Below, piece by piece: positions 45,671-45,914 of a stretch of DNA of 64,000 bases; within the stretch, counting starts at the first letter, position 1, and every line of letters begins with the position of its first letter. The notes under the pieces are model-generated. The model saw only the letters and a list, made by a program, of their open reading frames with translations, had not been told where the DNA came from and searched no databases. Made by a program: the position numbers and the translations under genes. The stretch comes from Escherichia coli (lineage in GTDB: Bacteria > Pseudomonadota > Gammaproteobacteria > Enterobacterales > Enterobacteriaceae): the NCBI RefSeq assembly GCF_041886205.1, contig NZ_CP169029.1; one strand, given 5' to 3'.

Positions 45671-45748
45671 GCACTTCAGCAATAATAACGTATAAAAAAA
45701 GCGGGCCAGTAAACTGACCCGCTCGAGACTGATTACAAACGCAAAATT

Positions 45749-45847
45749 GCCTGATGCGCTACGCTTATCAGGCCTACATAATCTCTGCAATCTATTGAAT
45801 TTGCATGTTTTTGTAGGCCGGATAAGGCGTTCACGCCGCATCCGGCA
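45749..45847. repeat. REP cluster between uspB and pitA
   Basis: gcctgatgcgctacgcttatcaggcctac and tgtaggccggataaggcgttcacgccgcatccggca. Confidence 0.75.
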
Positions 45848-45914
45848 TGAACAAAGCGCACTATGTCAACAATCTGAAGCGGGCCAGCTGACCCGCTCGT
45901 TTTGGTGTGTACGA

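Follow-up and report, generated by a model that had tools for sequence, protein, structure and literature searches.

The closest described relatives of the element treated here are the BIME-1 units (RIP/RIB; Gilson 1991; Bachellier 1994, 1997; summarised in Ton-Hoang 2012, PMC3333891). In these units a Y-type REP, an L linker with an IHF site and a Z1-type REP follow one another, and the REPs, arranged head-to-head, carry CTAC/GTAG tags. They occur as a single copy per locus, at extragenic sites between convergent genes, and they show presence/absence polymorphism. Related to them are the REPINs of the REPIN/RAYT system (Bertels & Rainey 2011, PMC3116915, PMC3337134; Nunvar 2010, PMC2817692), inverted REP doublets that are gained and lost whole and are able to fold into one long hairpin; a single-copy Y1 transposase is presumed to move them in trans. 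TnpA-REP was shown to cleave BIMEs in vitro and to recombine them (Ton-Hoang 2012, PMC3333891). On the spread of REPs and BIMEs, clean pairs of filled and empty sites with exact boundaries are the main natural evidence. To our knowledge, REP/BIME transposition has never been caught in E. coli. Whole-unit presence or absence among E. coli strains is said to be already known, and Bachellier reportedly described 'excisions of a whole BIME-1' in 1997.

A filled site of this kind lies between uspB and pitA in the window, the whole stretch of 64,000 nucleotides of Escherichia coli DNA analysed here (NCBI RefSeq assembly GCF_041886205.1, contig NZ_CP169029.1). The two genes are convergent and the spacer between them measures 244 bp. 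The parts of the locus are the following:

45335..45670, + strand: uspB coding sequence (111-aa ORF; annotated as uspB in matching E. coli records)
45694..45700, no strand assigned: A7 tract, seen in the sequence; read on the - strand, it supplies the U7 tail for pitA termination
45699..45725, no strand assigned: hairpin H1, 27-nt unit AAGCGGGCCAGTAAACTGACCCGCTCG (repeat and terminator scan)
45726..45747, + strand: BIME-1 outer-left motif AGACTGATTACAAACGCAAAAT, also present beside the Y REP of the glpD BIME-1
45748..45777, + strand: Y-type REP, inverted, ending in CTAC (fuzzy Y-consensus match; inverted-repeat pairs I3 and I8)
45778..45812, no strand assigned: L linker (L-motif match) with an IHF-site-like core (AATTCAATAGATTG on the - strand)
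45813..45847, + strand: Z1-type REP, starting with GTAG (Z1-consensus match; internal palindrome I2)
45848..45876, + strand: BIME-1 outer-right motif GAACAAAGCGCACTATGTCAACAATCTG, conserved next to Z1 at five other loci
45877..45899, no strand assigned: hairpin H2, 23-nt copy AAGCGGGCCAGCTGACCCGCTCG, without the loop TAAA (repeat and terminator scan)
45900..45903, no strand assigned: T4 tract, seen in the sequence; U tail for uspB termination
45915..47414, - strand: pitA coding sequence (499-aa ORF; annotated in matching E. coli records)

The 151 bp between the two hairpins (45726-45876) are made up of an outer motif, the Y REP, the L linker, the Z1 REP and a second outer motif. Y and Z1 are arranged head-to-head with their CTAC/GTAG tags, the L motif is matched with one substitution and includes a putative IHF-like core, and the whole is one extragenic unit at the 3' ends of convergent uspB and pitA. 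The outer-right motif recurs at sbp, lpdA, yajD-tsx, glpD and yhjG-yhjE, the outer-left motif at glpD. On every count that can be read from its letters, the uspB-pitA element is a BIME-1. Since the outer motifs are common to other BIME-1 loci, the inserted block is exactly one unit of the family, with nothing extra but the second hairpin. It is also REPIN-like by sequence. A difference from both systems lies at its borders: among the BIME-1 copies examined, only this one has the host terminator hairpin on each side, as a 27-bp direct repeat, and the HUH Y1-type transposition assumed for REPINs has no known target duplications.

On the L linker, Rfam reports ES036/CssrF at 45770-45810 (- strand) with 42 bits against a gathering score of 37.6. 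Weaker Rfam matches (L20_leader, rnk_pseudo and naRNA4, the last a partial match at Z1) fall below their gathering scores and were set aside as REP-related or chance. In the K-12 record NC_000913.3 (3638506-3640020) only the two coding sequences are annotated; BIME-1 and the terminators have no feature there, and the element is thus invisible in that annotation.

The earlier note had pointed to near-identical short hairpins on either side of the REP cluster, and this observation holds: they bracket one 151-bp BIME-1 exactly, and the sequences given for them, gcgggccagtaaactgacccgctcg at 45701-45725 and gcgggccagctgacccgctcg at 45879-45899, are exact. In a repeat search two exact direct repeats were recovered, AAGCGGGCCAG at 45699-45709 and 45877-45887, and CTGACCCGCTCG at 45714-45725 and 45888-45899. 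These 11-nt and 12-nt blocks stand in the same order in both hairpins. H1 reads AAGCGGGCCAG-TAAA-CTGACCCGCTCG and H2 reads AAGCGGGCCAG-CTGACCCGCTCG, the 4-nt loop TAAA being the sole difference between the 27-nt unit and the 23-nt copy. In E. albertii, H2 does have a loop (TTTA), and in strain VE-V11-M the H2 loop is TAAA and the direct repeat is perfect over all 27 nt. H1 and H2 further have in common a C/A mismatch in the stem and non-palindromic flanking bases, A upstream and TCG downstream, which identifies them as direct copies of one sequence. An inverted-copy model (quasi-palindrome extension) was rejected, as the stem mismatch and the flanks show the direct orientation; only the central AA/TT of the E. 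albertii loop appears inverted.

Both hairpins are GC-rich stem-loops and lie where genes end, at places in which terminators are to be expected, and their likeness might be a coincidence between two independent generic GC-rich intrinsic terminators, or the hairpins might be the terminal parts of the mobile element. The probability of such an explanation is negligible. The identity extends over 23 of 23 bases and includes the stem mismatch and the non-palindromic flanks, one strain has the perfect 27-mer repeat, and the pattern GCGGGCCAG-N0-6-CTGACCCGC is found at two places in the 64-kb window but did not arise in 100 dinucleotide-preserving shuffles. Generic terminator similarity is ruled out by the repeat identity and the shuffles. 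The hairpin as part of the mobile element is likewise out: it is found without BIME-1 in empty alleles and in 59 other species, and other BIME-1 copies are found without the hairpin.

A 916-nt query over the spacer is matched in 5,399 of 5,426 complete E. coli genomes, either at full length or 174 nt shorter. By means of an insert-specific 52-nt junction the long allele was counted in 2,044 of the 5,426 genomes (38%); the count of short alleles, about 3,355 (62%), was obtained by subtraction. The short allele has a single hairpin and no REP. It is composed of A7-hairpin (TAAA loop)-TCG-TTTT and reads ...AAAAAAAGCGGGCCAGTAAACTGACCCGCTCGTTTTGG.... In the alignment the short allele runs ...AAAAAAAGCGGGCCAGTAAACTGACCCGCTCG/TTTTGG..., and the long allele adds a 174-nt block, BIME-1 plus the second hairpin, at the slash. 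The insertion point in the long form thus lies between CTCG and TTTT, and the outer-left motif (45726-45747) is missing from the empty allele. The ends of the element coincide with the hairpin foot, with no spare bases in between. As aligned, the long allele is the short allele plus BIME-1 plus one extra copy of the 27-bp hairpin. The duplication always co-occurs with BIME-1, and no intermediate allele (A7-BIME-1 junction, BIME-1-TTTT junction or tandem hairpins) was found in the 5,426 E. coli genomes.

This comparison had been named beforehand as the check on the suggestion that a duplicated terminator or target-site footprint surrounds an inserted REP/BIME block. The duplication is supported, as genomes without the block carry a single hairpin and none of them was found with both. 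The footprint part of the suggestion holds with a caveat: a direct repeat does surround the block and the empty site has one copy, but at two other pairs of filled and empty sites no duplication is present. The insertion/loss polymorphism itself is real but fairly ordinary; the flanking duplication is unusually long.

The uspB loci of 80 Enterobacteriaceae species genomes were compared as well. Exactly one hairpin copy, with an A tract on one side and in most cases a T tract on the other, is present in 59 of the 80 species loci, among them those of Citrobacter, Salmonella, Klebsiella, Kluyvera and Kosakonia, and its loop is mostly TTTC. Two copies occur only in the two loci of the 80 that bear BIME-1, those of E. 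albertii and Escherichia sp. MOD1-EC7003. Because one copy is found in 59 of the 80 loci, the single hairpin is shown to be the ancestral state, and the duplication is tied to the uspB-pitA BIME-1.

The ancestral arrangement corresponds to a known type, the bidirectional intrinsic terminator (A tract, hairpin, T tract), of which the empty allele is a textbook case with A7, an 11-bp stem, a 4-nt loop and TTTT. Its hairpin has a computed energy of -21 to -22 kcal/mol with the A/U flanks, with A7 and U4 on its two sides, and it is conserved across Enterobacteriaceae. In the long allele, by difference, the U7 and U4 halves are 151 bp apart, each with its own copy of the hairpin. On the - strand H1 has a perfect 11-bp stem (-19.6 kcal/mol) followed by U7 (stem 45724-45699, then TTTTTTTATACG; terminator scan) and is predicted to act as a strong intrinsic terminator of pitA. 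Read on the + strand, the stem of this hairpin contains a C.A mismatch and a U tail is lacking. The + strand of H2 has a stem and U4, a weaker terminator, for uspB; on the - (pitA) strand only CAGAUUGU stands in place of the U tail. A GC-rich stem-loop followed by a U tract is thus found at H1 (-) and at H2 (+). The evidence for RNA 3' ends at both hairpins is that of published K-12 data: the stationary-phase termination overlap sites of uspB:pitA lie at 3639328-3639360 (H1) and 3639152-3639183 (H2), so that both K-12 hairpins are in the published table of bidirectional sites (bioRxiv 10.64898/2026.03.23.713779, supplement Table 16).

The terminator of the long allele is in this way split, H1 keeping U7 for pitA and H2 keeping U4 for uspB. 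Since each hairpin has a U tail for one gene only, each mRNA could pass the proximal hairpin and BIME-1 and run on to the distal copy, which would give REP-containing 3'UTRs and a convergent overlap of about 200 nt. These long 3'UTRs are modelled as near-perfect double-stranded RNA and are possible substrates of RNase III. The locus illustrates that a host terminator can be duplicated with each convergent gene keeping a hairpin with its own U tract. As a common natural polymorphism (38% vs 62%), uspB/pitA 3'UTRs with or without BIME-1 and the antisense overlap offer a ready-made isogenic test of the REP effect on the expression of convergent genes. REPs between convergent genes are reported to go with higher expression of both genes (bioRxiv 10.64898/2026.03.23.713779).

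Two further BIME-1 copies are present in the window:

6376..6506, - strand: comparison BIME-1 in the yhjG-yhjE spacer, intact; adjoins the terminator hairpin at 6341-6367; flanking duplication absent
about 32088..32200, + strand: degenerate BIME-1 with a truncated Y REP, a Z1-like REP and the outer-right motif; flanking duplication absent

The second of these lies between an ArsR-like ORF and arsC, and bears out the remark of the earlier note that the same REP family recurs at 32094-32180 beside the ars pair. At uspB-pitA the direct repeats border the element without a gap and one copy stands in the empty site, as after a target duplication; no flanking repeat was found at the BIME-1 insertions of yhjG-yhjE, ars, yajD-tsx and glpD. 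Local alignment of the 45-nt flanks gave a repeat only at uspB-pitA, where 0 of 500 shuffles reach the score; for the four other copies the fraction of shuffles that do so is 0.31-0.80. The empty allele of yajD-tsx contains a single terminator hairpin; in the filled allele BIME-1 is joined at the 5' foot of this hairpin with nothing duplicated. At yhjG-yhjE, 9 nt separate BIME-1 from the 3' foot of a hairpin that was there before, and no duplication is seen here either. The glpD comparison was set aside as uninformative, as the 'empty' strain has a different downstream region; here the left end of BIME-1 is at a 3' foot. With two filled/empty sites free of it, hairpin duplication is not a general footprint of BIME-1 insertion. 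What does recur is the position: an end of the element abuts the foot of a terminator-like hairpin at uspB-pitA (both ends), yajD-tsx, sbp, lpdA and glpD.

A further comparison is with DDE transposons and MITEs. Their target-site duplications are usually 2-14 bp long. They resemble the present case in the flanking direct repeats and the single copy in the empty site; the uspB-pitA repeat differs in that it is 27 bp long, comprises a whole palindrome and is absent at other copies of the family. A donor locus carrying the insert flanks together with the hairpin was searched for and rejected. Elsewhere the 52-nt right junction is matched only in part, at about 85-90% over 30-38 nt, and what matches is the outer-right motif of further BIME-1 copies. 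Next to the lpdA BIME-1 comes AGCGGCCAG..., a sequence similar to the beginning of the hairpin; the similarity may be a coincidence or, possibly, microhomology.

Taken together, the best explanation is that an ancient bidirectional terminator was copied around a BIME-1, that the block was later lost precisely and recurrently and that the long allele bears a split terminator; we assign it a probability of roughly 0.75. According to this explanation BIME-1 would have inserted where the terminator hairpin has its foot, as it did at other loci, and this single event would have left a copy of the entire palindromic target on either side. The most likely route would be a one-off template switch during replication or repair that re-copied the hairpin. 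A regular transposase stagger would be less likely, because Y1/IS200/IS605-type enzymes make no larger target duplications: the REP-associated Y1 transposases and their IS200/IS605 relatives act on single strands (Nunvar 2010, PMC2817692), and no target-duplicating activity is reported for TnpA-REP (Ton-Hoang 2012, PMC3333891). A target duplication is not made by any known REP/BIME or HUH Y1 mechanism, which counts against the best explanation too. As four other intact BIME-1 copies lack a flanking repeat, the duplication is to be regarded as a one-off whose mechanism is conjectural.

Two other accounts of this origin were weighed. In one of them the repeat is a genuine target-site duplication and the work of the insertion machinery: the extruded palindrome is nicked at the same foot on each strand, for example by TnpA-REP, and fill-in after joining doubles the whole 27-bp palindrome. 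It accommodates the repeat spanning the palindrome almost exactly from foot to foot, the element ends that abut it directly, the perfect 27-mer of VE-V11-M and the one copy in the empty site, and the BIME-1 ends at terminator hairpin feet of several loci are suggestive of structure-directed targeting. We nevertheless hold it to be improbable, given the filled and empty sites of yajD-tsx and yhjG-yhjE and the four other copies without a duplication, the single-strand chemistry of the IS200/IS605-type relatives of TnpA-REP and the silence of Ton-Hoang 2012 (PMC3333891) on such an activity. The corresponding general proposal, that BIME-1 integrates in a structure-directed manner at the feet of extruded terminator palindromes and duplicates the 27-bp hairpin when both strands are engaged, is a long shot to the same degree. 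If it were true, uspB-pitA would be a preserved molecular footprint of REP/BIME transposition, and would fix precisely where the mobile unit ends (AGACTG...CAATCTG) and what it targets. If the duplication is only a one-off replication accident, the locus is a well-documented curiosity. The other account has two steps, in which BIME-1 came to lie between the hairpin copies independently of their duplication, through a tandem hairpin duplication or through recombination of alleles with BIME-1 at opposite feet. BIME-1 is indeed found at either foot (at the 5' foot in yajD-tsx, on the 3' side in yhjG-yhjE, with its left end at a 3' foot in glpD). Neither a tandem-hairpin allele nor one with a single hairpin plus BIME-1 is present among the 5,426 E. 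coli genomes or the 80 species loci, however, and two rare events would be required at one site, which makes this account very unlikely.

The second part of the preferred explanation, precise loss, rests on the distribution of the alleles within Escherichia. The E. albertii insert is 94.0% identical to that of the window, compared with 95.8% for uspB and 92.5% for the 1.5 kb upstream, and it has locus-specific variants of the L linker and outer motifs that are absent from other BIME-1 copies. It is orthologous to the window insert, to judge from these variants. As the divergence of the insert is comparable with that of its flanks, the insertion event is estimated to date from around the species split, or else an early transfer took place. 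Within E. coli, long alleles are found on at least three flank haplotypes (window, GF4-3 and O111-type) that are 21-29 sites apart, and the inserts carry haplotype-specific variants (gtcaacaat, gtc-acaat, gtc-ataat, gtcaataat). In a neighbour-joining tree, built from 3,070 flank columns of only 15 sequences and ignoring recombination, short alleles are interspersed, some of them only 12-14 sites from long ones. This mixing suggests that the insertion is old and that precise loss between the direct repeats has happened repeatedly, a pattern that recombination could imitate; many short alleles may accordingly be secondary precise deletions rather than never-occupied sites.

Direct repeats of 23-27 bp around a palindrome are a classic substrate of slipped-strand deletion. 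The architecture of the long allele fits this RecA-independent process, with repeats of 23-27 bp placed 151 bp apart around a quasi-palindrome, and the short allele is the product expected from a right-arm crossover; deletion is here inferred from the allele distribution. A palindrome repeated in direct orientation forms an inverted repeat as well, so the long allele folds as one rod: from A tract to T tract (45690-45907) the window is predicted to form a single rod of about 100 bp, with energies of -47.8 kcal/mol for DNA (z -6.6) and -103.4 kcal/mol for the - strand RNA (z -9.8). Such folding of the quasi-palindromic BIME-1 would bring the 27-bp direct repeats together, and a precise RecA-independent deletion of 174-178 bp would restore the original terminator. 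Recurrent loss of this kind would account for the 38%/62% polymorphism in E. coli. Slippage of such a kind does occur at the yhjG-yhjE BIME-1, where a 64-nt deletion runs across an 8-nt microhomology.

Loss can also be dispensed with altogether. The short form would then be the continuous ancestral state and its sites never occupied, and the long form would have arisen once, near an E. albertii/clade-I-like lineage, and spread by homologous recombination. The short alleles of four other Escherichia lineages and of the more divergent E. coli haplotypes sampled (O157:H7, SF-166) can equally well be read in this way. A left-arm deletion crossover would moreover give a short allele without the loop; none was found in E. 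coli, where all short alleles carry the same TAAA loop, and this counts against recurrent loss. On the other side, the haplotypes with the long allele are mutually as different as they are from short ones, their inserts have acquired haplotype-specific variants, the E. albertii insert is as diverged as its flanks, some short alleles are separated from long-allele haplotypes by very few of the 3,070 columns, and the repeats around the palindrome are, as a matter of general knowledge, prone to deletion. On balance a history without loss seems rather doubtful, and insertion followed by precise loss is retained as the reading of the locus.

The kind of element is known, and the duplication of the terminator is an undescribed detail: no description of a terminator duplication at a BIME-1 was found in a full-text literature search, whose reach did not include Bachellier 1997. 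The uspB-pitA locus defines a complete BIME-1 unit of 151 bp at the foot of a conserved terminator hairpin.

Several minor observations were made on the loci compared. In 49 non-Escherichia species the terminator loop (45710-45713 in the window) reads TTTC; Escherichia has TAAA or AAAA, and H2 of E. albertii has TTTA. Since the stems are unchanged, the loop variants are read as small inversions or flips within a conserved hairpin. Other types of REP lie between the conserved hairpin and the pitA stop in Citrobacter amalonaticus and C. sedlakii (three loci), and likewise in Salmonella enterica subsp. diarizonae and arizonae (two loci), with the hairpin single in each case. These are independent insertions, after which the hairpin is no longer accompanied by the T tract. 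Synteny is broken in several Raoultella, Enterobacter and Leclercia (six loci), where uspB is followed by a different hairpin and a convergent gene other than pitA.

A transposase gene of IS621 (IS110 family) directly adjoins BIME-1 at the sbp locus of strain M15 and at the lpdA locus of strain EC0585 (about positions 1-250 of each locus), and the Y-REP side is cut at the same point in both (position ~49 of the BIME model). IS621 is known to target REPs, and both loci fit that targeting. In VE-V11-M (positions 240-410 of its locus) the left and central parts of the uspB-pitA BIME-1 are replaced by diverged BIME-1 sequence, the ends are still K-12-like and H2 has regained its TAAA loop. The pattern has the look of ectopic gene conversion, both from one BIME-1 copy to another and between H1 and H2. 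The yhjG-yhjE spacer (6335-6515 in the window; three further loci compared) has at least four allelic forms in E. coli. BIME-1 is present in one, and another is empty with the terminator hairpin only. In the third form the 64-nt deletion, over the 8-nt gccggatg, has fused the terminator hairpin to the Z1 REP, and the fourth contains an unrelated repeat of about 230 nt that is rich in GGGGTGAGGG-like motifs.
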